DNA from: an uncultured Actinomycetota bacterium
Lineage (GTDB): Bacteria; Actinomycetota; Thermoleophilia; Solirubrobacterales; Solirubrobacteraceae
Length of the DNA: 32,000 nt
Direction: 5' to 3'
Assembly (NCBI GenBank): GCA_963706725.1
Contig: OY970167.1
Location: 1,269,965-1,301,964, forward strand
In this document: positions 10,151 through 23,858 of the stretch, piece after piece
How positions within the stretch are numbered: position 1 is the stretch's first letter
Layout: the number at the start of each line of letters is the position of its first letter
Program-made: the position numbers and the translations under genes
The notes under the pieces: model-generated
The model's input: the letters and a program-made list of their open reading frames with translations, nothing else
Databases searched by the model: none
What the model was told of the DNA's origin: nothing

Positions 10151-10375
10151 GGGAGACACAGATCAGCACGGCAGATGGCGCGGGAGCCTTGCCCGGCGAT
10201 CGCTGCTGCGCCACAGCCCGGCGCTGGGCTCCGCAACGACCGCCGGAGACCTCCCCCCAAACCAGGATGAGACACATCTCGGGTTAGACACACAATCGGG
10301 ATGTGGGGAAGCCCTGATTGCCGGGCTTGTCGGAGGCGTCAGACTTCGCGGACAGCGATCAGAGCGAGGGTCGAC

Positions 10376-11518
10376 ATGCAGCACCAGGAGTTGACGCCAA
10401 TGGTGATTGGGCCGGAGGCACTTGACCTGCTGATCGCAACGCTGCGGTCTGGCGGGTTCCGGGTGCTCGGCCCAACGCTGCGCGACGGTGCGATCGTCTA
10501 TGACGACATCCAGAGCGCGGCACAGTTGCCAGCCGGCTGGACTGACGAGCAGGACGGCGGCAGCTACCGGCTGGTGCGCCGCGACGATGACGCCCGCTTC
10601 GGCTACGCGGTCGGCCCCCACTCGTGGAAGCGATTCCTTTTCCGACCTGAGCTACGACTCTGGCAGGCGCGGCGATCCGGCTCGGGCGAAATGGTCGTCG
10701 AGGAGGAGTCCACCTCAGACCAGCGGATGGCCTTCATCGGGGTGCGCTCCTGTGAGCTGCACGCGATCCAGATCCAGGACCGTGTCTTCATGGGCGGGCA
10801 TCACGTGGACCGCGACTACGCGGCCCAGCGTGAGGGCGCATTCCTGGTCGCGGTCAACTGCATAACCCCCGGCGGGACCTGCTTCTGCACGTCGATGGGC
10901 ACAGGACCCAAGGTCGACGCCGGATATGACATTGCGCTGACGGAACTGCTCGTCGGAGATCACCGGTTCCTGGCCGAGGCCGGGACAGAGCGTGGCGCAT
11001 CCGTGCTGGCGGCACTTCCGGGACGACCCGCCAGCGACGCGGATCTGTCCTGCGCCGGAGCAGCAACCGACGCCGCCGCCGCACAGATGGGACGCACGAT
11101 GGAGGTCAGCGACATTCGTGACCTGCTGGCGCGCAACCTCGAGCATCCGCGCTGGGACGACGTTGCCGCCCGCTGCCTGAGCTGCGGAAACTGCACACAG
11201 GTTTGCCCCACTTGCTTCTGTTCCTCTGTCGAGGACAGCAGCGACCTCAGTGGCGGCACGGCGACGCGCACGCGCGTCTGGGACACCTGCTTCTCCGTCG
11301 AGTACTCCCATATCCACGGGGGCAGCATCCGCCCCTCGTCCCGTTCGCGCTACCGGCAGTGGATGACACACAAGCTGGGCACCTGGATCGACCAGTTCGG
11401 GACTTCGGGGTGTGTCGGCTGCGGACGTTGCATCACCTGGTGCCCGGTCGCGATCGACATCACGCAGGAAGTCAACGCGATCCGCGCGACGGAGGGTTCC
11501 AGTGCAACGATCGCTTGA
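10376..11518 (+). CDS. hyhB: [NiFe]-hydrogenase group-3b-type beta subunit (AsrA/HydB-like 4Fe-4S dicluster protein)
   Basis: It carries the Cys clusters [16 protein letters not shown] and [12 protein letters not shown], plus [15 protein letters not shown] lies 6 nt upstream of the ATG at 10376. It is the first gene of a hydrogenase cluster. Confidence 0.85.
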
Positions 11519-11972
11519 GACCTTGCTGGTCGACACCCCGCTGTTTGAGGGCCTCGACGCGGACACGCTCGCGCTGCTGGCAGGATGCGCCAGGAACGTC
11601 CACTTCGATCAGGATTCGACGGTGATCCGGCGGGGAGACCAGGCGGACGACTTCTACCTGATCCGTCACGGCAGCGTGACCCTTGAAACGTACGTGCCCG
11701 GTCGCGGGCCGGTCACGATCGAGACGCTCGAGAGCGGCGAGGTGCTCGGCTGGTCCTGGCTATTTCCGCCATACCGATGGCACCTGGATGCGCGGGCGCT
11801 GACCGCCGTGCGTGCGACCGCCTTCGACGGCGCATGCCTGCGCGGCAAATGTGAGCACGACCCAGCACTCGGCTATGCGCTGATGTCCCGCTTCGCACAG
11901 GTCCTGATCGAGCGCCTGCAGTGGACACGGCTCCGACTCCTCGACGTCTACGGTGACCATGAGCATCGCTGA
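11502..11972 (+). CDS. Stand-alone cyclic-nucleotide-binding-domain (CAP/Crp effector-domain-like) protein with no DNA-binding domain
   Basis: [49 protein letters not shown]...[25 protein letters not shown] has the cNMP-binding beta-roll pattern. The GTG at 11502 is preceded by GGAGGG at a 5-nt spacing and overlaps the hyhB stop by 17 nt. The protein is 156 aa. Confidence 0.8.
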
Positions 11973-12792
11973 GCAGCTCACCCCGGGCGTGATGGTGCCT
12001 CGAGCATTCAACCTCAGCGCCCGTCGGCAGGACACGGCCGACACGTTCACGCTGGCGCTCGAGCCGCAGGCCGGCGAGGCGCCGCCGATCGCCCCGGGTC
12101 AGTTCATGATGGTCTACGCGTTCGGGATCGGCGAGGTGCCGATCTCAGTGAGCGGGGCGTCAGCAACAGAGGTCGTGCTCACAGTCCGTGCGGTCGGCGC
12201 GGTGTCGAACGCGATCTGCCGTGCGCCGGTCGGCAGCATGCTCGGGATGCGCGGTCCGTTCGGAAATTCGTGGCCGATCGCAAGCGCCGCCGGCACTGAC
12301 GTGATCGTGGTGGCGGGCGGCATCGGTCTGGCCCCGCTGCGCATGCTGATCCGGCAGGTGATCGGCAACCGCGGCGACTTTTCAGCTTTCTGCCTTCTCT
12401 ATGGCGCGCGCACGCCGGGGGACCTGCTCTACATGAACGAGATCGCGGGCTGGCGTCAGGCTGCGGATGTGGCCGTCACGGTCGACGCCGCGGACGCCGA
12501 CTGGACGGGCCAGGTGGGTGTGGTTCCGAAGCTGGTCAGCGCTGCGCGCTTTGCCGGCAGGTCCGCCCACGCCTTCGTCTGCGGCCCCGAGATCATGATG
12601 GACTTCACGGCCCAGGCTCTGCTCAAACGTGGCGTTCCCCCGGAGCAGATCCACCTCTCGATGGAGCGCCACATGGACTGCGGGGTCGGGCTGTGCGGGC
12701 ACTGCCAGCTCGGTCCGACCCTGATCTGCCGTGACGGCGCCATCTATAGCCACGCCGAGATCGCATCGTTGATGCGGGTGCGTGAGCTGTGA
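11953..12792 (+). CDS. hyhG: Hydrogenase gamma subunit (AsrB/PyrK-like FAD/NAD(P)-binding protein with a C-terminal 2Fe-2S site)
   Basis: It has a ferredoxin-reductase-type fold pattern ([27 protein letters not shown]) and the motif [10 protein letters not shown]...CRDG. The start is GTG at 11953 or ATG at 11959. Confidence 0.85.
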
Positions 12793-13562
12793 GCCCGACA
12801 GACAAGCCGACGCTGGCGGTTTGGAAGTTCGCATCCTGCGACGGCTGCCAACTGAGCCTGCTCGACCTCGAGGACGAGCTGTTGACGCTCGCGGGCGCGG
12901 TCGAGATCGCGGAGTTCCACGAGGCCACGAGCCACAACGTCGCCGGCCCGTACGACCTGTCGCTGGTCGAGGGCTCCATCACCACCGAGCATGACCTGCG
13001 GCGCATCCAGGAGGTGCGCCGCAGGTCCCGAGCGCTGGTGACGATCGGCGCCTGCGCGACCTCCGGTGGCATCCAGGCACTGCGGAACTTCGGTGACGTG
13101 GCCGAGTTTGCAGCCGCGGTCTACGCATCGCCGCAGTACATCTCGACGCTGTCCACCTCCACCCCAATCGCCGCGCACGTCGATGTGGACTACGAACTGC
13201 ACGGTTGCCCGATCGACAAGCACCAGCTGTTTGAGGTCATCAGTGCTCTGCTCAACGGACGCCGGCCCGCGATCGCTTCCACCAGTGTCTGCACCGAGTG
13301 CAAGCGCCGCGGGATCGTGTGCGTCACCGTGGCGCACGGCACCCCCTGCCTCGGCCCGGTGACACACGCCGGCTGTGGTGCACTCTGCCCCGCTTACAAC
13401 CGCGGCTGCTTCGGCTGCTACGGCCCCATGGAAACGCCAAATACCGACGCGCTGCTGCCGCTGCTGCGCGCTCGAGGTCTCGACGACGACGGTGTGCGGC
13501 GGGTCTTCCAGACGTTCAACGCGGCCGCTGAGCCGTTCCGTAGAGCCGTGAGCGATGGGTGA
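12789..13562 (+). CDS. hyhS: [NiFe]-hydrogenase small (delta) subunit, NuoB-like
   Basis: It contains [22 protein letters not shown] and the C-terminal cluster [13 protein letters not shown]...[15 protein letters not shown]...GCFGCYGP. It has a GTGA overlap with the gamma subunit gene. Confidence 0.88.
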
Positions 13563-14847
13563 ACGGCGCACAATCCGGACGGACTACCTGGCGCGCGTCG
13601 AGGGTGAGGGCTCGTTCACCGTCCAGATCGAGCACGGGCGCGTCGAGCACGCGGAACTGCGGATCTTCGAGCCGCCACGGTTCTTCGAGGCGCTGCTGCG
13701 CGGACGCCTGTTCACGGAGGCGCCCGACATCACCGCCCGCATCTGCGGGATCTGCCCGGTGGCCTATCAGACGAGCTCGATGAACGCCATGGAGAACCTC
13801 TGTGACGTCGAGGTACCGGAGCCGGTTCGCATGCTGCGACGGATGCTCTACTGCGGCGAGTGGATCGAGAGCCACGCGCTTCATGTGTACATGCTGCACG
13901 CGCCTGACTTTCTCGGCTACGCGGGCGCGGTCGAACTGGCGCGCGACGCCCCGCAGATCGTGGAGCGCGGGCTGCGGCTGAAGAAGGCCGGCAACGAGTT
14001 GATGCGGCTCATCGGCGGTCGCGAGATCCACCCGATCAACGTCCGGGTCGGCGGCTTCTACCGGGCACCGTCCAGACGAGAGCTGTCGACGTTGGTGGAG
14101 CCGCTGCGTCGCGCGCGCGATGAGGCCGTCGAGACCGTTCGTTGGACCGCCGGATTCGACTTTCCAGAGCGCGAGGTCGAGTGCGAACTGGTCGCGCTCT
14201 CCCATCCGGAGGACTACGCGATCGAGCGCGGCCGGATCCGGTCAGACCGCGGCCTCGACATCACCGTCCCGGAGTACACCGAGCATTTCGAGGAGGAGCA
14301 CGTCGAGCGTTCGACAGCGCTGCACTCGCATCTGCGGGAGCGCGGAACCTACCTGTGCGGCCCACTGGCGCGGTACTCGTTGAACCACGCGCAGCTCTCG
14401 CCACTTGCGCTCGAGCTCGCGCGTGAGGCCGGGCTCGGTGAGACCTGTCGCAATCCGTTCCGGAGCATCGTCGTGCGCAGCGTCGAGCTCGTCTACGCAT
14501 GTGACGAGGCTCTGAGGCTGATCGACGCCTACGAGGAGCCGGGATTCTCGGGGGTCGATGTCTCACCGCGGGCCGGGAGTGGGCATGGCGCCAGCGAAGC
14601 TCCGCGCGGGATGCTCTACCACCGCTACAGGATCGACTCCACCGGCACGATCCTCGAAGCGCAGATCGTGCCGCCAACCTCGCAAAACCAGCAGGCGATC
14701 GAGGATGACCTGAAGGACGTGGTCCAGCGCAACCTCGAGCTCGAGGACGAACGTCTGCGATCGCTGTGCGAGCAGACCATCCGAAACTACGACCCATGCA
14801 TCTCCTGCGCCACGCATTTCCTCCGACTGGAGGTCAGCGGCCGATGA
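13555..14847 (+). CDS. hyhL: [NiFe]-hydrogenase large (alpha) catalytic subunit
   Basis: The N-terminal Ni-binding motif is [10 protein letters not shown] (the canonical form is RxCGxCxxxH). The C-terminal motif is DPCISCATH, followed by the 9-aa extension FLRLEVSGR, as expected for an endopeptidase-processed precursor. Confidence 0.9.
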
Positions 14848-15851: not shown

Positions 15852-16750
15852 GCATCCGTAAGACAGGTATCGCGTTGGCGTTTGTCAGCGCCGTCATCAG
15901 CGGCGTGTCGATCTACGTCAACGGGTTGGGCGTCAAGCACTTTCCCGACGCGAGCGTCTACACAACCGCCAAGAATGGCGTCGCTGGGCTGCTCCTGCTC
16001 GTCGCACTCGTTGCCGTGCCCTCACGGCGCCCCCTTCCAAGGCCGAGACGACGGGCGGCTCTGCCGCTGCTCGCTGTGGCGGTCATCGGGGGTAGCGTGC
16101 CGTTCATCCTCTTCTTCGAGGGTCTCGCCCGGGCGCAATCGACGCAGGCCGCGTTCATCCAGAAGACGCTGGTGATCTGGGTGGCGATCCTGGCGGTCCC
16201 CCTGTTGAAGGAGCGCCTCCGCTGGCCGCACGCGCTGGCGATCGCGCTGCTGCTCGGTGGAGAGGCATGGCTTGCCGGTAAGGCCGGCCATATCGCGTTC
16301 GGCAGCGGCGAGGCGATGATCCTCGCGGCCACCCTGATGTGGGCCGTGGAGATCGTCTACGTCAAACGACTGATGGACAGCTTCGATCCGCGGCTGCTCG
16401 CCACCGCCAGGATGGCGCTCGGCGCGGTACTGCTGATCGCCTGGGTGCTGATCACGGGCAAGGCCGGTCAGCTGCTTGCGCTCAGCGGCGTGGAGTGGCG
16501 CTGGGTGCTGCTCACGGGCGTGCTCCTGGCCGGCTACGTGGGCACATGGTATGCGGCGCTGGCGTGTGCTCCCGCGGTAGACGTGACCGCAGTGCTCGTA
16601 TTCGGCGCAGTCATCACCGCGCTGCTGTCAGGCGCGTCCGGGTCGGCGTCGGTCAACGCCCCAGCCCTGCTGTTGGTGATCGCGGGTTGCGGGATCATCG
16701 CCTGGTCGCCACTGCGCGGCACTGATGCCCGATCTGCGAGCCCATCATGA
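15848..16750 (+). CDS. EamA/DMT-superfamily transporter (10 predicted TM segments)
   Basis: It has two repeated five-TM halves, highly hydrophobic, with typical EamA features (GGSVPFILFFEGLARA; ILAATLMWAVEIVYVKRL). It has GTGA and ATGA overlaps with the genes on either side. Confidence 0.75.
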   Translation: MSIRKTGIALAFVSAVISGVSIYVNGLGVKHFPDASVYTTAKNGVAGLLLLVALVAVPSRRPLPRPRRRAALPLLAVAVIGGSVPFILFFEGLARAQSTQAAFIQKTLVIWVAILAVPLLKERLRWPHALAIALLLGGEAWLAGKAGHIAFGSGEAMILAATLMWAVEIVYVKRLMDSFDPRLLATARMALGAVLLIAWVLITGKAGQLLALSGVEWRWVLLTGVLLAGYVGTWYAALACAPAVDVTAVLVFGAVITALLSGASGSASVNAPALLLVIAGCGIIAWSPLRGTDARSASPS

Positions 16751-17526
16751 ACGTCGCGGCGCAGCTACCCACCGCTCCCGGGCCGCTGCTGTTCGCGCGA
16801 TACGCATACCCGCCTAACGCGCTGGGACTGTGCGGAGCTGACGGCCCGCGCGAGCTGCTCGAATACGGGGATGCGCACGTGTCCGATCTCGGCCTGGCAG
16901 AGGTCGCGCGGACGTTTGACGGCGCATGGCCTTACCTCGAGCTGATCGCCGGCGCCAACGGCATCGGCGATCCACTCGACGCACGCGTGGTCGAGGCCTA
17001 TTGGGTCGGCAACGAGCTGCTCGGAAGCGTGAGCCCGAGCGACCTCGCACGCAATATCGCGGACAGGTTCAGCGGACGGATCGGGCGCGCCCGGGAGCAC
17101 ATCGACGACACGATCGCCGCCGGCGCCGTTCCTCACCACTGCTTCCACGTCTTCGCCGTGTACCCGTGGCTGGGACTGCTGCGTACCGGCGTGGTCGATC
17201 AGCCGCTGCACATCCTCGACCAATGCCGGATCACTCCCGCGGTGGTGGATTCAGTTGGGCCGCACGACACACTGACGGTCCTCGCCCGACCGCTCGGCTG
17301 GGCCGGCGGGCGGCTGTTCCTCGGAGAGCCGGCAGCGCGCGCGGTCCGCTGGCAGACCGACGGCCTCGCCTTCGTCACTGAGCCCCAACCGGGGGACCGT
17401 GTCTCATTGCACTGGGACTTCGTCTGCGACCGCCTCTCGCCGCGCTCGGCGAGAAGCCTCCTGGCCGCAAACGAACGCGCGATCCGGGCCGTCAACGTCG
17501 CGGGCGCGGCGGCGGGTCTCGCGTAG
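16747..17526 (+). CDS. Conserved hypothetical protein with a C-terminal HypC-like domain (possibly the actinobacterial hydrogenase-cluster-associated DUF family; not verifiable here)
   Basis: It is 259 aa with codon usage like its neighbours. The C-terminal segment QCRITPAVVDSVGPHDTLTV...PGDRVSLHWDFVCDRLSPRSARSL parallels HypC (MCxGxPGxVV...GDxVLVHxGFA...A). It is the last gene of the coupled operon. Confidence 0.6.
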   Translation: MNVAAQLPTAPGPLLFARYAYPPNALGLCGADGPRELLEYGDAHVSDLGLAEVARTFDGAWPYLELIAGANGIGDPLDARVVEAYWVGNELLGSVSPSDLARNIADRFSGRIGRAREHIDDTIAAGAVPHHCFHVFAVYPWLGLLRTGVVDQPLHILDQCRITPAVVDSVGPHDTLTVLARPLGWAGGRLFLGEPAARAVRWQTDGLAFVTEPQPGDRVSLHWDFVCDRLSPRSARSLLAANERAIRAVNVAGAAAGLA

Positions 17527-17534
17527 GCCGAGCT

Positions 17535-19105
17535 TCAGCGTGGTCGCGCTGAGACAAGGCTGTGATCGTAGTCCGCGGCCCTGAGCTGCGGAAGCAGCCG
17601 GCGCTGTTTTCGGTGGTGGCGCTCCATCCGCCGCAGGATGTCGTCGAGCACGCGGATCGCTTCAAGGATCTGCGGGCCCTTGTTCAGCATCACGCACTCC
17701 GCGCCGCCTGCCATCGCAGCGTCTGTTATCTCCGCGCGTGTCGGTCGTCCAGTCTTGGCGAGTTGGTCGAGGACCTGCGTGGCCCAGATGACCGGCACGT
17801 GCGCCGCCTGACACAGCCAGAGGATCTCCTCCTGGACCTCCGCAAGCCGCTCGTAGCCGCATTCGATCGCAAGGTCTCCACGCGCGATCATCACACCCGA
17901 TGGCCGACCGCTGCCGAGGGCCGCCAGCAGCATGGCCGGCAGATGCTCGAACGCCCGCTGCGTCTCGACTTTCAGGATCATTCCCACACCTGCTCGCGAG
18001 TGCTCGTCCAGATACTCGCCGACGCGTTTCACGTCCCCGGCGTGACTGATGAACGACAACTCCACGACATCTGCGTAGTCGGTGGCGAAGCGCAGGGCAT
18101 CCTGGCTGTGAGTACCGAGCAGATCGATGTCGAGTGCCGCATCAGGCAAATTGATGCCCTTGTCCGGACGGAGCTTCGAGCCGTTGTGGCCGGCCGCGGT
18201 GATCCGCAGCTCGATCGTGTCGGTGCTGACGGCGTCAACGATCCCGCCGAGCTTGCCGTCGTCGAACCAGACATGGTGACCTGGCATCGTCCCGATGAAC
18301 GCCTCGTCGAGCGAGCAGATCACCCGAGGCGGCTCACCTTCACTCGTTGTGGCCTTCCCGCCCGTCCCGGCACGTGTGAGCAGCAGCGAGTCCCCAACGC
18401 GCAGCCGCAGGTAGAAGCCCTTGGCGTCCCTTGTCGTCTGTGCGGACAGCAATCCGGTACGCAGCTTTGGACCGGGCAGATCGACGAAGATCCGCGCGTG
18501 CTTACCTGTTCGCTGCTCCACCTCCCGTAGGTGTTCGCACATCGCGCCCAGTGCTCGCGTTCGTCGTGAGCGCAGTTGATGCGCACGCAGTCCATTCCGG
18601 CATCGAGCAGCTCACGCACCAGGCTCGCGTCGGTCGCGGCCTCCGAGGGCATCGTCACCATGATCCGCGTCGGTCGTTTGCGTCGTGCCGAGCCAAACAG
18701 GGCGACGGCACGCTGCTCGAGGAGTTGCCTACTCCCGGCAAAACCAATCGGCGCCGGCTCGGCGAACGAGTGCGGGGAGTGCTCGGTGAGCGCCAGCAGT
18801 GCGCCGAGGACGGCGTCGACGCTCGCCTGCACGTGGCCCTCATTGCCTCCCAGCGACGAGAGGCCCAGCTCTATCAGGGTGTATTGGGCGTCGCGCAGGT
18901 CGTGTCGACGGAGTGCCAGGTACTGCAGCAGGTTGCGGGCGCTCGCGTCGGTGTCCGATTGGCACTCGGAAGTCCACGGCGTCCAGCGCTCTGCCACCTC
19001 CAGCAACTCGGAGCGGATCTCCGACAGCTGATCAACCAGCCCCGCTGCTTGCTCGACCATGTAGTAACGATGTCCCAACCGCGTCTGTTCAGCATCGTGC
19101 TTCAT
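17535..19105 (-). pseudogene. Pyruvate-kinase-family protein with a ~140-aa N-terminal helical extension, interrupted by a 1-nt frameshift near 18543-18546
   Basis: The upstream frame reads MKHDAEQ...NLLQYLALRRHDLRDAQYTLIELGLSSLGGNEGHV...RPTRIMVTMPSEAATDASLVRELLDAGMDCVRINCAHDEREHWA. The downstream frame reads (A)MCEHLREVEQRTGKHARIFVDLPGPKLRTG...MILKVETQRAFEHL...MIARGDLAIECG...TQVLDQL...PTRAEITDAAMA. The catalytic PK motifs are intact on both sides of the shift. Confidence 0.8.
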
Positions 19106-19383
19106 CCGAATCCTGGTCCCGGCCAACTACCGAGTGGGATCTCTTCGGGCACGATCCTTCCGTGTCTGTGAGTGACCTGGTTAGGGACTTGATCCGCCCG
19201 TTACATCGGTAGGGTGAGATGTGCTTGCCGACGGACGCGGGCGCCGCCAGCGGAGCTCCACTACGGCTGACTGACGGCGCGAGATGGCCACATCGAAAGG
19301 GAGCAGCTTTGACCGACAGCAGTCCAGCACCCCGGCGCGCCCGATCTCCCCGGCAGTGCCTTCAGCATGATTGAGGCGAGCGC

Positions 19384-20647
19384 GTGATGCCCGACGCTCG
19401 GCTGCACCTGTCCTCGGTCGCCGGTAGCCCGCTGCTCGACTCGGCGGGTGAGCGGCTCGGGCGGGTCGAGGATCTGATCGTCCATCTCGGTAGCGATCAC
19501 GAGTTGCCGCCGGTTACCGGTGCCGAGGTACGGATCGGTGGCCGGGAGATGTTCGTTCCGATCAGCAGCATTCGGCAGCTCGAGCCCGACACTGTCCAAA
19601 CGACGACGACGAAGCTGGACCTGGCACAGTTTGAGCGCCGACCGGGAGAGGTTCTGCTGCGGGCGGACGTCCTCGGGCGGAGTTTGATCAACCACGCGAC
19701 TGCCCGGCTGGTCAAGGCCCGCGAGGTTGAGCTGGTGAATGATGGCGATACGTGGCGCGTTGCAGGGATCCATACCAGCCGTGGACCTGGGATCAGGCGG
19801 TTGTTGCCCCGCTACTTCCGTGGCCACGAGCACGATCATGCGGAGTTCGTGCCGTGGCCGGAGGTGGAGTTGCTCGTCGGGCACGTCCCTACGTCCCGGC
19901 TGCGGCTTGGGTCCCGTCGCCTCAGGCGCCTGCACCCGGCGCAGATCGCCGATCTCGTGGAGGCCGCGTCACACGCTGAGGGGGCGGAGATTCTCGAGGC
20001 GGTCGGGCGCGATAAGGAGCTCGAGGCGGATGTTTTCGAAGAGCTCGACGATGAGCACCAAGTCGAGTTCCTGAAGGAGCGCTCCGACGCGGAGATCGCG
20101 GACGTCCTCGCTCGTATGGCCAGCGACGACGCAGCCGACCTGCTTCTTGAGATCGAGCAGGACCGCCGTGTTCCCGTGCTTCAGCTGCTGCCGGCCGCCA
20201 AGCAGCTGAAGATCAAACGCCTGCTTGGCTACAACCCGTCCACCGCGGGCGGGCTGATGAACCCCGACTTCAGGTCCGTGCCGGCCACCGCCACCGTCGA
20301 GCAGGCCCTCGCGCTCGTGCGTGACAGCGGACTCGCCCCGGGCCAACTGCTGGCGCTATGGGTCCTCGACACGCAAGAGCAGCTTGTCGGGTGTGTCCTC
20401 GCCTCCGAGCTCGATTCGCGCCCAGCCGGGCGCGATCATCACCACGCTCATCGAGACTCGAATCCCGACTGTCTCTCCGGAAACGGAGCTTCCCGAGGTC
20501 GCTCGCCTCATGGCCGATTTCGACCTGCTCGCGATCCCGGTCGTTGACAGCGGGGAGAAGCCGATCGGCGTCGTCGCGTTCGACGACGTAATGGAACTCC
20601 TCCTCCCGGACGAATGGCGTCGACGTGGTGGAGACGCACGCGGATGA
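19384..20647 (+). pseudogene. Soluble PRC-barrel + MgtE N-terminal domain + CBS-pair protein (MgtE cytoplasmic sensor module without a membrane domain), with a frameshift near 20410-20416
   Basis: The MgtE_N pattern is HPAQIADLVEAASHAEGAEILEAV...DDAADLLLEIEQDRRVPVLQLLP...LLGYNPSTAGGLMNPDF. The first CBS domain ends ...LVGCVLASEL. The sequence continues in the +1 frame as IRAQPGAIITTLIETRIPTVSPETELPEVARLMADFDLLAIPVVDSGEKPIGVVAFDDVMELL. No TM segment is present. Confidence 0.8.
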
Positions 20648-20677
20648 CCGGTTCTGACACGGACGGCACGGGCGCTG

Positions 20678-22348
20678 ATGGCGCCCGAAGATAGCCCCGC
20701 CGCACCTGAGGCCGCGGGCTCCGACCCGACCTCGCGAGTGCGCGAGCGCTTCGTGCTCGACGCCGCTCACGTAGGTGACATCGAGGGCGCGTTCGGCACC
20801 ATCAGCCAGCATGAGGGCCGTCGCCGCGGGCTACACGCACGGGCGCTGGCACTGCTCGCGATCATGGGCCCAGGACTCATCGTGATGGTGGGCGACAACG
20901 ACGCAGGCGGGGTCGCGACTTACTCCCAGGCGGGCCAGAACTACGGCACGAGCCTCCTCTGGGTGCTGCTGCTGCTGATCCCCGTGCTGATCGTCAACCA
21001 GGAGATGGTCGTCCGACTTGGTGCCGTCACCGGCGTCGGTCACGCCCGGCTGATCAATGAGCGCTTCGGCAAGTTCTGGGGGTGGTTCTCCGTCGGCGAC
21101 CTGTTCCTATTGAACTTCCTCACCATCGTCACCGAGTTCATCGGGGTCAGCCTTGCGCTCAGCTACCTCGGAGTCTCGAAGTTCGTCGCCGTTCCGCTCG
21201 CTGCAGCAGGACTCGTCGCGATCACGGTCACCGGCAGCTTCCGCTCATGGGAGCGGTCGATGTTCATATTCGTCTTCGCCAACCTCTTCGTGATTCCGCT
21301 CTTCTTCATGGCTCATCCCAACGGGTCTGACATCGCCCACAACTTCTTCGTCCCAGGCATTCAGGGGGGCGCGAACTCCAGCTCGGTGCTGCTGATCATC
21401 GCGATCGTTGGCACGACGGTCGCTCCGTGGCAGCTGTTCTTCCAGCAGTCCAACATCATCGACAAGCGCATCACACCGCGCTGGATCAACTACGAGCGCC
21501 TCGACACGTGGATCGGTGCCGTCGTCGTGGTCCTAGGCGCCGCTGCGCTCATCTGCATCTCGGCCTTCGCGTTCCACGGCACCCCGGCCGCCGGTCACTT
21601 CAGTGACGCCGGCGCGACCGCCACCGGCCTCGAGCGCCACCTCGGTTCACCCGCCGGTGCCCTGTTCGCGATCGTGCTGCTCAACGCCTCTCTGATCGGC
21701 GCCGGCGCGCTGACGCTCTCTACCAGCTACGCCGTCGGTGACGTATTCGGCAGCCACAGCTCACTGCATCGCAGGTTCGCCGACGCCAAGCAGTTCTACG
21801 GAATATTCGCCGCGATGATCGCCGCGGCTGGCGGCATCGTCCTCATACCCGGCGCACCACTAGGCGTGATCACCGAATCGGTTCAAGCCCTCGCCGGGGT
21901 CCTGCTACCGAGCGCCAGCGTGTTCCTCCTGCTGCTCTGCAACGACCCTGAAATCCTCGGGCCATGGCGTAACCCAGGCTGGTTGAACATTCTCGCCAGC
22001 GTAATCGTCGCGATCCTCGTACTGCTCTCGCTGGTCCTGATGGCGACCACCGTCTTCCCCAACATCGACGTCACGGCGGTCGCCCTGATCGGCGGCGCGC
22101 TACTGGCCGTTGGGCTCCTCGCATTCGGGCTCCTCACCCTTCGCTCACAACGCGGCGCCATCGCAGCGCCCGTGCCCGCGACCTCGACTCGGATCCCAAA
22201 AGAGCAATGGACGATGCCCCCGCTGGCCCTGCTCGCGCGGCCGCAGTGGTCCACCGGACGCAAGATCGCGATGCTCACACTTCGCGGCTATCTCATCATC
22301 GCGATCATCCTCCTGCTGATCAAGGCCATACAACTCGGTGGCGGATAA
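20678..22348 (+). CDS. NRAMP/SLC11-family transporter with NRMT-like (Mg2+-type) binding-site substitutions and an extra C-terminal TM tail
   Basis: The TM1 motif is MGPGLIVMVGDNDAGGVATYSQAG, with DAGG in place of the canonical DPGN. The TM6 motif is IVGTTVAPWQLFFQQS, with T..A in place of A..M and W in place of H. The protein is 556 aa and strongly hydrophobic throughout. Confidence 0.85.
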   Translation: MAPEDSPAAPEAAGSDPTSRVRERFVLDAAHVGDIEGAFGTISQHEGRRRGLHARALALLAIMGPGLIVMVGDNDAGGVATYSQAGQNYGTSLLWVLLLLIPVLIVNQEMVVRLGAVTGVGHARLINERFGKFWGWFSVGDLFLLNFLTIVTEFIGVSLALSYLGVSKFVAVPLAAAGLVAITVTGSFRSWERSMFIFVFANLFVIPLFFMAHPNGSDIAHNFFVPGIQGGANSSSVLLIIAIVGTTVAPWQLFFQQSNIIDKRITPRWINYERLDTWIGAVVVVLGAAALICISAFAFHGTPAAGHFSDAGATATGLERHLGSPAGALFAIVLLNASLIGAGALTLSTSYAVGDVFGSHSSLHRRFADAKQFYGIFAAMIAAAGGIVLIPGAPLGVITESVQALAGVLLPSASVFLLLLCNDPEILGPWRNPGWLNILASVIVAILVLLSLVLMATTVFPNIDVTAVALIGGALLAVGLLAFGLLTLRSQRGAIAAPVPATSTRIPKEQWTMPPLALLARPQWSTGRKIAMLTLRGYLIIAIILLLIKAIQLGGG

Positions 22349-22488
22349 CCCAGTCAGGAAGTGCACAGCCGACGACCGACCGGGCAGACACGGACGGGTG
22401 CTTCCGCCCGGTCTGGCATGCTTCGCGATGCGTGGCAGCGGGTTCGCGGGCGCGCGGGCGCGACGCGGGATCTGGGAGACTGGGTCCC

Positions 22489-23133
22489 ATGTCGCAGCAA
22501 GGCCCGCCTCGCATCGCAGTCATGACCGGGGAGGCGGGTGACGACGATTCGCTTCCGGACCGCGCTCGATTGCGTCGTCGCGGTTTTGCGCTCGAGGGCG
22601 CGACGCTCGCTTGGAATGTCGTCGGTGTTGTCGTCCTGGCGCTCGCGGCGATCGCCGCCCGCTCGGTGGCACTCGCCGGCTTTGGGCTCGACTCGTTGAT
22701 TGAAATCGGCGCATCGACCGTAGTGATTTGGGAACTCGCCGGTACCAACGAGGACCGCCAGGAGCGTGCGATGCGATGGATCGGAGGCGCGTTCGCCGTG
22801 CTGGCCGTGTACCTCACGGTCCAGTCGACCTGGGTGCTGATCGCCGGCTATCACGCCCATTCGAGCCTCGCCGGGATGGTCTGGACGGGGATCACGGCTG
22901 TGGTCATGTTCGCCCTGGCTTATGGCAAGGGTGTGACCGGCCGCGCGCTGGGCAACCCGGTGCTGGAGACTGAGGCGCGGGTGACTGTTGTGGACGGGAT
23001 CCTCGCGGTGGCTGTGCTGGTCGGGCTGGCCTTGAACGCCATCGCGGGGTGGTGGTGGGCCGATCCGGCTGCCGCCTTCGTACTCGTGTTCTACGCGGTC
23101 CGTGAAGCTCGCGAGACGTTGCTCAAGTCCTGA
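22489..23133 (+). CDS. Short cation-efflux (CDF-like) membrane protein without a cytoplasmic C-terminal domain
   Basis: The sequence RRGFALEGATLAWNVVGVVVLALAAIAARSVALAGFGLDSLIEIGAS..., with six hydrophobic segments, is typical of TM-only CDF-like proteins. The ATG at 22489 was chosen because the longer ORF start at 22207 overlaps the NRAMP gene. Confidence 0.7.
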   Translation: MSQQGPPRIAVMTGEAGDDDSLPDRARLRRRGFALEGATLAWNVVGVVVLALAAIAARSVALAGFGLDSLIEIGASTVVIWELAGTNEDRQERAMRWIGGAFAVLAVYLTVQSTWVLIAGYHAHSSLAGMVWTGITAVVMFALAYGKGVTGRALGNPVLETEARVTVVDGILAVAVLVGLALNAIAGWWWADPAAAFVLVFYAVREARETLLKS

Positions 23134-23244: not shown

Positions 23245-23649
23245 TCAGAAGTCCGCGTAAGCCGCGGCAATATCCAGCGCGGACAGGATGCCGCTGGCGT
23301 AGCCGGTGGCGGCATCGATCACGATCAGATGCTCGGTTCCGTGTTCGAGCATTTCGCTCGCAGCCTCGTCAAGCGAGTCGGTGGAGAGCACCGTGGCGAC
23401 CTCCGTGGCGACTTCACCGGCGGTTTCGTCGCTGGCGTTCGCTGCGCCTCGCAGTATTGCTGCCATCGTGACGAACCCAAACGGGCGACGCGCCTGATCT
23501 GGATCGGCCACCGCCACGGCGTGCACGCGCTGATCTGACATAAGGCGCGCGACAACCTGAAGCGGGACTGATGGATCTGTGGTGAGGATGCCTGTGTGCA
23601 TCACCGAAGACACACGAATATGGCTGAGAAGTGGATCATGGATCGGCAT
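23245..23649 (-). CDS. Stand-alone CBS-pair protein (134 aa)
   Basis: It has two CBS motifs: VSSVMHTGILTTDPSVPLQVVARLMSDQRVHAVAVAD and EVATEVATVLSTDSLDEAASEMLEHGTEHLIVID. The ATG at 23649 has GGGAG 7 nt upstream. Confidence 0.8.
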   Translation of the reverse strand: MPIHDPLLSHIRVSSVMHTGILTTDPSVPLQVVARLMSDQRVHAVAVADPDQARRPFGFVTMAAILRGAANASDETAGEVATEVATVLSTDSLDEAASEMLEHGTEHLIVIDAATGYASGILSALDIAAAYADF

Positions 23650-23858
23650 CAGAGGCTCCCGTCTGAAGGACGCTTTTGACCTGTGCCGCAAAGCCTACGA
23701 TCGCGTCGGTGGCACCGAATCGGGCCGCAACCGCATTGCTGCTCAGTAGTTGTCGGCACCCTCAGGGCACCGGAGATCAGTTGCTCCGAGTGAGGCCCGC
23801 GGTGGCGACTCGGCGCGGTTCACACGACCTGCGTCGGCTCAGCATTAGCGGCGCTGGC

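Follow-up and report, generated by a model that had tools for sequence, protein, structure and literature searches.

Genes for NrmT transporters, an NRAMP-related outgroup, that adjoin a gene for a homolog of the MgtE cytoplasmic domain were already reported by Shin et al. in 2014, and feedback regulation was proposed for such pairs (PMC4072509). The one test of this proposal in that study was made with the pair from A. capsulatum, and co-expressing the partner brought no improvement (PMC4072509). The A. capsulatum NrmT, which has a partner gene and lacks a riboswitch, gave full rescue of a Mn2+-uptake mutant, whereas a Mg2+ mutant was rescued only at millimolar Mg2+ (PMC4072509). According to Shin et al., the M-box riboswitch marks the subset of NrmT proteins with high affinity for Mg2+ and not the whole group (PMC4072509). 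The motif that defines NRMTs is DxxG on helix 1 together with TxxA/T on helix 6 (PMC8806188). The structurally characterized EleNRMT of Eggerthella lenta (PDB 7QIA/7QIC; PMC8806188) is a protein of about 440 aa with 11 helices.

We analyzed a window of 32,000 nt, which is the whole stretch of DNA presented here, and found that it harbors a soil actinobacterial copy of the two-gene unit first described in 2014. The pairing itself is not new. As in the operons of C. acetobutylicum (Ca_c0685) and A. capsulatum (ACP_2976/2977), the transporter gene lies immediately downstream of the MgtE-like gene. In contrast to the operons of Shin et al., no M-box is present and the transporter is a 556-aa long form. 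The C. acetobutylicum partner is naturally split into two genes, while the partner in the window is encoded by one gene. The PRC barrels of the partner are not mentioned in the papers that we retrieved. We consider it probable (roughly 0.6) that the region encodes a unit of the known kind, consisting of a Mg2+-importing NRMT and a soluble, MgtE-derived partner that exerts feedback inhibition, and that the frameshift in the partner gene is an assembly error. The features are listed in Table 1.

Table 1. Location of the features of the two-gene unit in the window and the evidence for each.
Feature	Position	Strand	Evidence
5' leader and probable promoter region for both genes; -10-like TAGGGT at ~19210-19215	19188..19386	+	~80% identical to L001 4511-4710
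Gene for soluble PRC-PRC-MgtE_N-CBS-CBS protein; 419 aa once the extra base is removed, interrupted as written	19387..20647	+	Pfam; DNA alignment to intact orthologs L001/L002; reconstruction
PRC-barrel 1, residues 1-80	19387..19626	+	Pfam PRC 2.2e-4, just above cutoff; stronger in family members; AF2 beta barrel on 88%-identical ortholog
PRC-barrel 2, residues 88-165	19648..19881	+	AF2 beta strands 88-162; PRC match at the equivalent position in P0365; two PRC stretches in P0316; BLASTP internal repeat
MgtE N domain, residues 176-281	19912..20229	+	Pfam MgtE_N 1e-19; alignment to 2YVY; conservation
CBS domain 1, residues 287-343; final codons span the frameshift	20245..20416	+	Pfam; AF2
Single extra G (gagctcGattcgc), +1 reading-frame shift	20413..20413	+	Sole length difference from L001/L002 across the gene; removal restores 419 aa
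CBS domain 2, residues 348-405, in shifted frame	20429..20602	+	Pfam CBS 1.1e-9 on frame-2 ORF
Conserved basic tail L-P-x-E-W-R-R-R, where MgtE has the acidic plug-helix start	20603..20644	+	P407, W410, R411, R413 conserved; aligns with TtMgtE 254-259
Intergenic spacer, 30 nt	20648..20677	+	Identical length in L001/L002
NRMT-type SLC11 transporter gene, 556 aa	20678..22348	+	Pfam Nramp; best PDB match EleNRMT 7QIA; below NCBIfam MntH cutoffs
Helix-1 metal-site motif D75-A-G-G78 (DxxG)	20900..20911	+	Alignment; motif definition PMC8806188
Helix-6 motif T246-T-V-A249-P-W251 (TxxA; Trp replaces first helix-6b His)	21413..21430	+	Alignment; motif and residue roles PMC8806188
99-aa C-terminal extension beyond the EleNRMT end: predicted TM12, cytoplasmic loop, TM13	22049..22345	+	Alignment; AF2
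Highly conserved loop motif IPKEQWTMPPLALLARPQWSTGRK in the C-terminal extension	22193..22264	+	Two alignments; no Pfam family

The Transporter Groups with NRMTs

The transporter ORF matched Pfam Nramp with 1.3e-80. EleNRMT was its top PDB match (5.4e-58, 200 bits, 34% identity), while other solved SLC11 proteins reached at most 76 bits (2e-20 or worse) and matches to canonical NRAMP/MntH structures only 1e-13 to 1e-16. On the NCBIfam MntH model, for which the cutoff is 430, the protein scored 115 bits, and the cutoff of TIGR01197 was also missed. The sequence-only reading had assigned the transporter to the NRMT type rather than to the Mn/Fe NRAMPs, and the alignment agreed with this assignment (5.4e-58 for EleNRMT versus ~1e-15 for MntH). 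By its sequence, the transporter is thus grouped with NRMTs rather than canonical Mn/Fe NRAMPs, and an annotation as a MntH Mn2+/Fe2+ transporter is not advisable for this protein.

Residues D75, G78, T246, A249, E153, and Q403 aligned with D55, G58, T224, A227, E133, and Q379 of EleNRMT. The DAGG and TTVAPW substitutions that had been read from the sequence were borne out and match D55/G58 and T224/A227 of EleNRMT residue for residue. The canonical motifs DPGN and AxxMPH were not found in the transporter, where the positions of Asn, Ala, Met, and His are occupied by Gly, Thr, Ala, and Trp, respectively. In the helix-6 stretch APWQLFFQQSN, W251 and a Gln occupy the His positions of NRAMPs, where EleNRMT has Trp and Asn. 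When helix 6b was inspected, the proton-pathway histidines were lost as they are in EleNRMT. The two proteins have the same D/G/T/A site, the helix-10 Gln, the helix-3 Glu, and a Trp in place of a proton-pathway His. With canonical NRAMP/MntH proteins (DraNramp, ScaDMT, EcoDMT) the transporter shares the SLC11/LeuT fold, the helix-1 Asp, and the helix-10 Gln, but it has DxxG/TxxA instead of DPGN/AxxMPH.

Compared to EleNRMT, the transporter of the window has an additional N-terminal tail of ~56 aa and the 99-aa C-terminal extension. The AF2 model (pLDDT 59, shallow alignment) was used for helix positions only and predicted, at low confidence, extension helices at residues 465-494 and 526-553 with a cytoplasmic loop between them. 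The earlier estimate of about 100 aa for the extension was accurate; the single extra TM segment postulated with it is replaced by two predicted helices. Matches extended through residues ~553-556 in most of 80 genome loci, and several ended at ~529-539. The extension gave no Pfam match, even at E ≤ 10. A BLASTP hint (E = 3.8) of similarity to the N-terminus of DUF1003 proteins was rejected, as hhalign gave a probability of 0.2%. The extension had also been considered as a docking site for the partner. EleNRMT-type proteins of 431-445 aa lack the extension, yet their genes overlap a PRC+MgtE_N+CBS gene or follow it at a distance of 4 nt; close relatives of EleNRMT have the same partner gene as the transporter of the window. 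Since these short Eggerthellaceae NRMTs keep the partner, the pairing does not depend on the extension, and a docking role of the extension is unsupported.

The Partner Is a Homolog of the Cytosolic Domain of MgtE

For the upstream gene, a PRC-barrel, an MgtE_N domain, and a CBS pair without a membrane domain had been described, located 30 nt from the transporter gene. Spacing, domain types, and the lack of a membrane domain were confirmed; the gene is, however, not a single ORF as written, and there are two tandem barrels instead of one. The likely start is the ATG at 19387 rather than the GTG at 19384. The MgtE membrane domain PF01769 was not detected by Pfam, and the protein stops 13 residues past the second CBS domain. 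Its proposed homology to the cytoplasmic part of MgtE was upheld by phmmer (1e-23 to 1e-27) and by Foldseek (TM about 0.72/0.73-0.80); the AF2 model had a pLDDT of 79.6. Like the cytosolic domain of MgtE from T. thermophilus (2YVY/2YVX) or E. faecalis (2OUX), the partner comprises an N domain and a CBS pair of the same fold with the acidic ligands of Mg4, Mg6, and Mg7. Unlike MgtE it has no pore, carries two additional PRC barrels at the N-terminus, and has Arg in place of E258/D259 of the plug helix.

The roles of the Mg2+ sites of MgtE were taken from PMC5882242. In the N domain, D215, D247, and D251 correspond to E59, D91, and D95 of TtMgtE and are conserved in 65-75 of 78 diverse representatives; in the second CBS domain, D400 and E403 correspond to D247 and D250. 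At the positions of E59, D91, D95, and D247, an acidic residue is present in 72-77 of the 78 representatives. With D215, D247, D251, and D400, the acidic ligands of Mg4, Mg6, and Mg7 at the N/CBS interface are kept. The Mg5 site is partial in the family, as D379 is Asn in most members while E403 is kept, and the plug-helix ligands of Mg2/Mg3 are Arg/Lys. The ATP-site residues Y170, R187, D188, N203, and F227 of MgtE are not kept but are A323, S340, E341, E356, and L380 in the partner; among them, the ATP contacts Y170, R187, N203, and F227 have given way to Ala, Ser, Glu, and Leu. Because 72 of 78 diverse family members have Leu at the position of the ATP-stacking Phe (F227), the ATP sensing suggested earlier is doubtful.

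The Frameshift in the Partner Gene

The extra G at 20413 splits the partner gene between both CBS domains. Frame 1 (19384/19387-20547) ends in a run of 45 out-of-frame codons; CBS domain 2 is encoded in frame 2 (20321-20647). The intact length of about 119 listed homologs is roughly 419 aa. Programmed frameshifting was rejected, since the site is not slippery and the other listed homologs have no frameshift. The frameshift is probably a long-read assembly error and not biology, because a second 1-nt frameshift is present 1.9 kb away, at about 18545, in an adjacent, unrelated PK-like gene, and because partner genes were broken in 6 of 40 loci from Nanopore-only MFD MAGs (assembly method as in PMC12313526) but in 0 of 32 others (hypergeometric p ~0.025). 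A real frameshift, by which the partner gene would be a recent pseudogene and the transporter would work without it, appears unlikely to us, although the public record for the source contig itself calls a truncated 386-aa product (P0123) and the inserted G lies outside any homopolymer run. NRMTs also function without a partner in heterologous hosts, and four related loci have none; for three of these, the upstream sequence covers 4 kb. No further decay was seen, however: there are no other indels, and the 14 synonymous and 11 non-synonymous differences from the ortholog after the shift follow a pattern that resembles the part before it. The broken gene is best annotated as a probable assembly error.

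Conservation and Spacing of the Gene Pair

The claimed pairing was confirmed by a survey of related genomes. Partner and NRMT gene were paired in 72 of 76 informative genome loci, and the paired loci span Solirubrobacterales, Acidimicrobiales, Actinomycetes, Chloroflexota, Dormibacterota, and Acidobacteriota; the pair is also present in Eggerthellaceae. Judged by its relatives, the source organism of the window would be Solirubrobacterales-like. Synteny with relatives stops just outside the pair, and the similarity of the leader to L001 ends upstream at the point where the neighbor genes differ. In most relatives the intergenic distance is 200-450 nt, or the genes overlap by 4 nt, as opposed to 30 nt here. 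In most Solirubrobacterales the 200-450 nt between the genes carry a separate leader, and a leader with a uORF occurs in relatives such as L005 and L020. In Actinomycetes, the 4-nt overlaps of start and stop codons suggest translational coupling. In five loci (L011, L013, L018, L052, and L066), other genes lie between partner and NRMT gene; they vary in sequence, strand, and length and appear to be secondary insertions. No natural fusion of partner and NRMT was present among the best 150 of 8408 representatives; apparent NRMT fusions of 1336-1360 aa in L061 and L081 were artefacts of ORF calling.

No M-box riboswitch was found by Rfam in the window at the gathering threshold, in positions 18900-20800 at E ≤ 1, or in 21 related loci, and the scans of the window detected no other Rfam family. 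The fold of the leader was no better than that of shuffled sequence (z = +1.33), and neither a sigma-70 nor a terminator consensus was found.

Substrate and Role of the Partner

Since there is no M-box riboswitch, the substrate may be either Mg2+ or Mn2+. It is possible, though not the reading we favor, that the transporter imports mainly Mn2+ or a broad range of divalent metals and that the partner senses Mn2+ or another signal. The riboswitch-less, partner-bearing NrmT of A. capsulatum, the closest such member with transport tests, behaved mainly as a Mn2+ importer (PMC4072509), and the window and 21 related loci share the lack of an M-box; an Acidobacteriota locus (L057, 65% identity) falls within the same long-form clade. 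EleNRMT carries Mn2+ besides Mg2+, and NRMT residues introduced into the EcoDMT site gave no Mg2+ transport. On the other hand, the site of the transporter is a full DxxG/TxxA site, including the Thr whose loss in EleNRMT abolishes Mg2+ but not Mn2+ transport, and the partner retains the Mg2+ ligands of MgtE.

The soluble protein might also not gate the transporter at all but act as a metal chaperone or buffer, or as a regulator of another target, and be merely co-expressed. Chaperone activity was an alternative considered by Shin et al., and co-expression was without effect (PMC4072509). The module is not restricted to NRMTs, because paralogs of the same architecture adjoin DUF1003 genes in L014 and L027 and one, P0333, is fused to an MgtE pore; the long spacers with separate leaders in most Solirubrobacterales are compatible with this alternative as well. 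The tight adjacency across phyla with frequent gene overlap speaks against it, and the alternative partners are all membrane proteins as well, as would fit a regulator of membrane proteins. We regard a role apart from gating as rather unlikely.

In the favored reading of Mg2+ import with feedback inhibition, the NRMT, an NRAMP-related carrier of the LeuT fold whose DxxG/TxxA site is enlarged, should by analogy with EleNRMT take up Mg2+ as well as Mn2+ without coupling to protons. The PRC-PRC-MgtE_N-CBS2 partner, probably derived from the cytosolic regulatory domain of a MgtE-type channel, would bind cytosolic Mg2+ at the acidic N/CBS sites equivalent to Mg4, Mg6, and Mg7, and the closed, Mg2+-bound form would restrain the transporter. 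As the partner lacks the covalent link that the plug helix provides in MgtE, it would need to contact the transporter non-covalently; candidate contact elements are the two PRC barrels and the conserved basic PxxWRRR tail. The data show the identity of the proteins, their site residues, their homology, and the co-conservation of the genes. We infer the binding of the partner to the transporter, the direction of the regulation, and the substrate, and we hypothesize that the soluble protein gates the transporter. More tentatively, the PRC-PRC-MgtE_N-CBS protein may be a portable Mg2+-sensing gate, which docks non-covalently by its PRC barrels and/or the PxxWRRR tail on unrelated membrane proteins. 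The module would then have moved between a channel fold and a LeuT-fold carrier, with the conserved TM12-13 loop as a possible extra contact in the long-form clade.

What the MgtE-like protein does for NRMTs has been asked since 2014, and the structure of EleNRMT was solved without it. The window itself adds nothing categorically new, but the surrounding survey sharpens the question of the partner. The occurrence of the partner with both short and long NRMTs is a further handle on its role. [quoted passage not shown]

Identity of the transporter

Among solved structures, the closest relative of the transporter was EleNRMT, the Mg2+ transporter of Eggerthella lenta (7QIA; 5.4e-58, 200 bits), while all other solved SLC11 proteins reached at most 76 bits. 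The score against NCBIfam MntH (115 bits) was far under the cutoff of 430. Residues D75, G78, T246, and A249 of the metal site aligned with D55, G58, T224, and A227 of EleNRMT, and E153 and Q403 with E133 and Q379. W251 occupies the position of the first helix-6b histidine of canonical NRAMPs. The transporter carries DxxG/TxxA, the NRMT signature according to Ramanadane et al. (PMC8806188); in EleNRMT, loss of the Thr abolishes Mg2+ transport, while Mn2+ transport is retained (PMC8806188). The sequence-only reading, that the metal site deviates in the manner of NRMTs, was thus borne out, and alignment with NRMT and NRAMP proteins did not place the protein among canonical MntH.

The transporter runs 99 residues past the end of EleNRMT. 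The claimed extension of about 100 aa was therefore present, but instead of one extra TM segment two extra helices (465-494 and 526-553) were predicted by AF2 with low confidence (pLDDT 59). The loop between them is Arg/Lys-rich, presumably cytoplasmic in the model, and alignments showed a very conserved motif, IP[KR]EQWTMPPLALLARPQWSTGRK, that is matched by no Pfam family. The long form aligned to its end or within ~30 residues of it throughout the 80 closest species-level genomes, which belong to Solirubrobacterales, Acidimicrobiales, Mycolicibacterium, Nocardia, Streptomyces, Chloroflexota, Dormibacterota, and Acidobacteriota.

Conservation of the gene pair

We surveyed NRMT loci in one genome per species and retained the best 80, of which 76 had sufficient upstream sequence. 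The sensor gene was located upstream on the same strand in 72 of these 76 loci, and it was full-length unless cut by a contig end. The spacing was ~30 nt in the window, L019, and the close orthologous loci L001 and L002, 200-450 nt in most Solirubrobacterales and Acidimicrobiales, and most Actinomycetes showed a 4-nt overlap. In five loci 1.2-2.1 kb were filled by differing inserted genes, unlike in length, strand, and sequence. Since the pair survives such insertions, co-transcription is not needed. In four loci with a long-form NRMT (L049, L075, and L080, with 4 kb upstream available, and L051) the retrieved flank contained no sensor gene. Similarity between the window and L001 started at 19188; the flanking genes differed, and synteny stopped just beyond the pair.

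The Eggerthellaceae near relatives of EleNRMT (431-445 aa) lack the C-terminal extension. Even so, a 450-aa PRC+MgtE_N+CBS gene lies 4 nt upstream of their NRMT gene or overlaps it, and its product aligns end to end with the sensor family. NRMTs thus generally have an MgtE-like partner, and docking cannot require the extension that had been suggested as its site.

In L014 and L027 a paralogous PRC+MgtE_N+CBS gene (30-36% identity to the sensor), close to the NRMT pair, lies directly upstream of a gene for a small DUF1003 (PF06210) membrane protein. The soluble module thus also partners a second kind of membrane protein; we found no paper connecting DUF1003 and MgtE.

Features of the window and of related loci (own coordinates)
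Feature	Locus	Position	Strand or frame	Remark
Sensor ORF part 1	window	19384-20547	frame 1	387 aa; Pfam PRC, MgtE_N, one CBS
Sensor ORF part 2	window	20321-20647	frame 2	108 aa; Pfam second CBS
NRMT-type transporter	window	20678-22348	+	556 aa; Pfam Nramp 1.3e-80
Pyruvate-kinase-like gene	window	17535-19126	-	overlapping ORFs 18320-19126 and 17535-18542
Cation-diffusion-facilitator-like ORF	window	22207-23133	+	overlaps NRMT 3' end from first start; likely start near 22513
Stand-alone CBS-pair protein gene	window	23245-23691	-	opposite strand to NRMT
Fer4_22, cNMP-binding, NiFe-hydrogenase large-subunit homologue	window	10301-14847	+	gene string upstream of pair
EamA transporter, DUF6390 protein	window	16747-17526	+	after gene string
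Inserted genes	L011	2348-3703		between sensor and NRMT
	L013	2526-3287
	L018	2378-3583
	L052	1920-3503
	L066	2908-3807
Sensor paralogue next to DUF1003 gene	L014	5672-7365	-
	L027	6312-7325	+
Intergenic leader	L005	3754-3982		also in ~27 other loci; not in window
	L020	3624-3850

The frameshift in the sensor gene

The gene 30 nt upstream of the transporter encodes the proposed PRC, MgtE_N, and paired CBS domains; however, these are divided between two frames, so that it is not one ORF in the window. L001 and L002, whose transporter is 89% identical, have an intact 419-aa sensor gene and also a 30-nt spacer. DNA alignment revealed an extra G at 20413, in gagctcGattcgc, as the sole length difference, and its deletion restored the 419-aa sensor (start ATG 19387). 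The public source-genome record has the identical break, with a truncated product of 386 aa (P0123) on the 3.70-Mb contig of the transporter (P0001).

Four lines of evidence favor an assembly error. About 119 other sensor homologues among the matches listed were unbroken, with roughly 419 aa. No further decay followed the frameshift: compared to the orthologue, 14 codons past the shift differed synonymously and 11 non-synonymously, compared to 110 and 40 ahead of it. The neighboring pyruvate-kinase-like gene is split by a single-base indel at ~18545 (frame switch near 18540-18550, reading ...INCAHDEREHWAR / MCEHLREVEQ...), and Pfam PK barrel homology of its downstream ORF begins at profile position 48; this second frameshift within 2 kb bears on assembly quality. 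Finally, of the related genome loci, 6 of the 40 from "MFD...bin" MAGs and none of the 32 others had a sensor gene split over at least two frames (hypergeometric p ~0.025, our calculation). MFD MAGs are Nanopore-only assemblies with one Medaka polishing round (PMC12313526). Against these observations, the extra G sits outside any homopolymer, as would suit a genuine frameshift and a recent pseudogene, which we consider unlikely.

Architecture and Mg2+ ligands of the sensor

Sensor residues 177-406 matched MgtE cytosolic domains (2OUX, 1e-26; 2YVY, 4e-23), and the AF2 model of an 88%-identical orthologue (pLDDT 79.6) superposed on them (TMt 0.72-0.80). In this model two beta barrels (residues 1-80 and 88-165) precede the MgtE N domain. 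We assigned them as tandem PRC barrels, because sensor-family members have PRC matches at both positions, BLASTP revealed an internal repeat, and the full architecture is kept down to 26% identity. We found no paper tying PRC barrels to MgtE-like proteins. The protein representative P0333 (601 aa) has PRC, MgtE_N, and the CBS pair fused to the MgtE pore domain (PF01769), so MgtE channels with N-terminal PRC barrels exist; these may be ancestors of the soluble partner.

TtMgtE (T. thermophilus) residues mapped onto the sensor by sequence alignment; roles from PMC5882242 and PMC5529423; conservation in the window sensor plus 77 diverse full-length representatives (n=78)
Site	TtMgtE	Sensor	Conservation
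Mg7	E59	D215	acidic in 72/78
Mg4	D91	D247	acidic in 75/78
Mg6	D95	D251	acidic in 77/78
Mg4	D247	D400	Asp in 73/78
Mg5	D226	D379	Asn in most
Mg5	D250	E403	acidic in 63/78
Mg2 (plug helix)	E258	R411	Arg/Lys in 61/78
Mg3 (plug helix)	D259	R412	Arg/Lys in 53/78
ATP	Y170	A323	Tyr in 36/78
ATP	R187	S340	Arg in 37/78
ATP	N203	E356	variable
ATP	F227	L380	Leu in 72/78

The sensor had been read as the Mg2+/ATP-sensing parts of MgtE. The Mg2+ ligands of sites Mg4, Mg6, and Mg7 are conserved, but the ATP residues are changed. By this mapping, the module plausibly still closes on Mg2+, whereas MgtE-style ATP binding is probably absent. The plug-helix replacements fall within a conserved P-x-x-W-R-R-R tail.

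Leaders and neighboring genes

Neither the window nor 21 related loci contained an M-box or any other Rfam family, and folding of the window leader gave no unusual structure. L005, L020, and about 27 other Solirubrobacterales loci share a conserved sensor-NRMT intergenic leader, without Rfam match, in which a short uORF accompanies a -10-like TGnTAnnCT. The uORF reads MDREQPRST..., with a strong GGAGG site, in one group of loci; in the second group it lies behind a terminator-like hairpin and ends in ...YQDxELPRS.... Invariant CC[GA]CGAAGTA, the Pro-Arg-Ser codons (including rare CGA and AGT), opens a hairpin CCGCGA...TCGCGG. This may be a translation-coupled attenuator, comparable to mgtL, the leader of mgtA in Salmonella.

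The two downstream neighbors are probably outside the two-gene unit, since neither is conserved in L001. The upstream genes from Fer4_22 to DUF6390 have no relation to it.

Discussion

Gating of the transporter by the sensor is a published hypothesis: Shin et al. [quoted passage not shown] Co-expression did not improve rescue by the A. capsulatum pair, whose transporter fully rescued Mn2+ uptake and Mg2+ uptake only at millimolar levels; the authors concluded that not all members are high-affinity Mg2+ transporters, but just a subset that an M-box riboswitch often marks (PMC4072509). Given this result and the lack of an M-box here, the substrate may be either Mg2+ or Mn2+.

What is added here to this known pairing is incremental: the PRC barrels with an MgtE-like protein, the analysis of functional residues, and the long-form clade. 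From homology, site residues, and co-conservation we infer that the transporter most likely is an NRMT-type importer of Mg2+ and Mn2+ without proton coupling, and that the partner, probably dimeric, would be co-expressed as its Mg2+-binding regulatory subunit. The partner would use its PRC barrels, its basic tail, or both to contact the transporter, and would restrain it at high cytosolic Mg2+.
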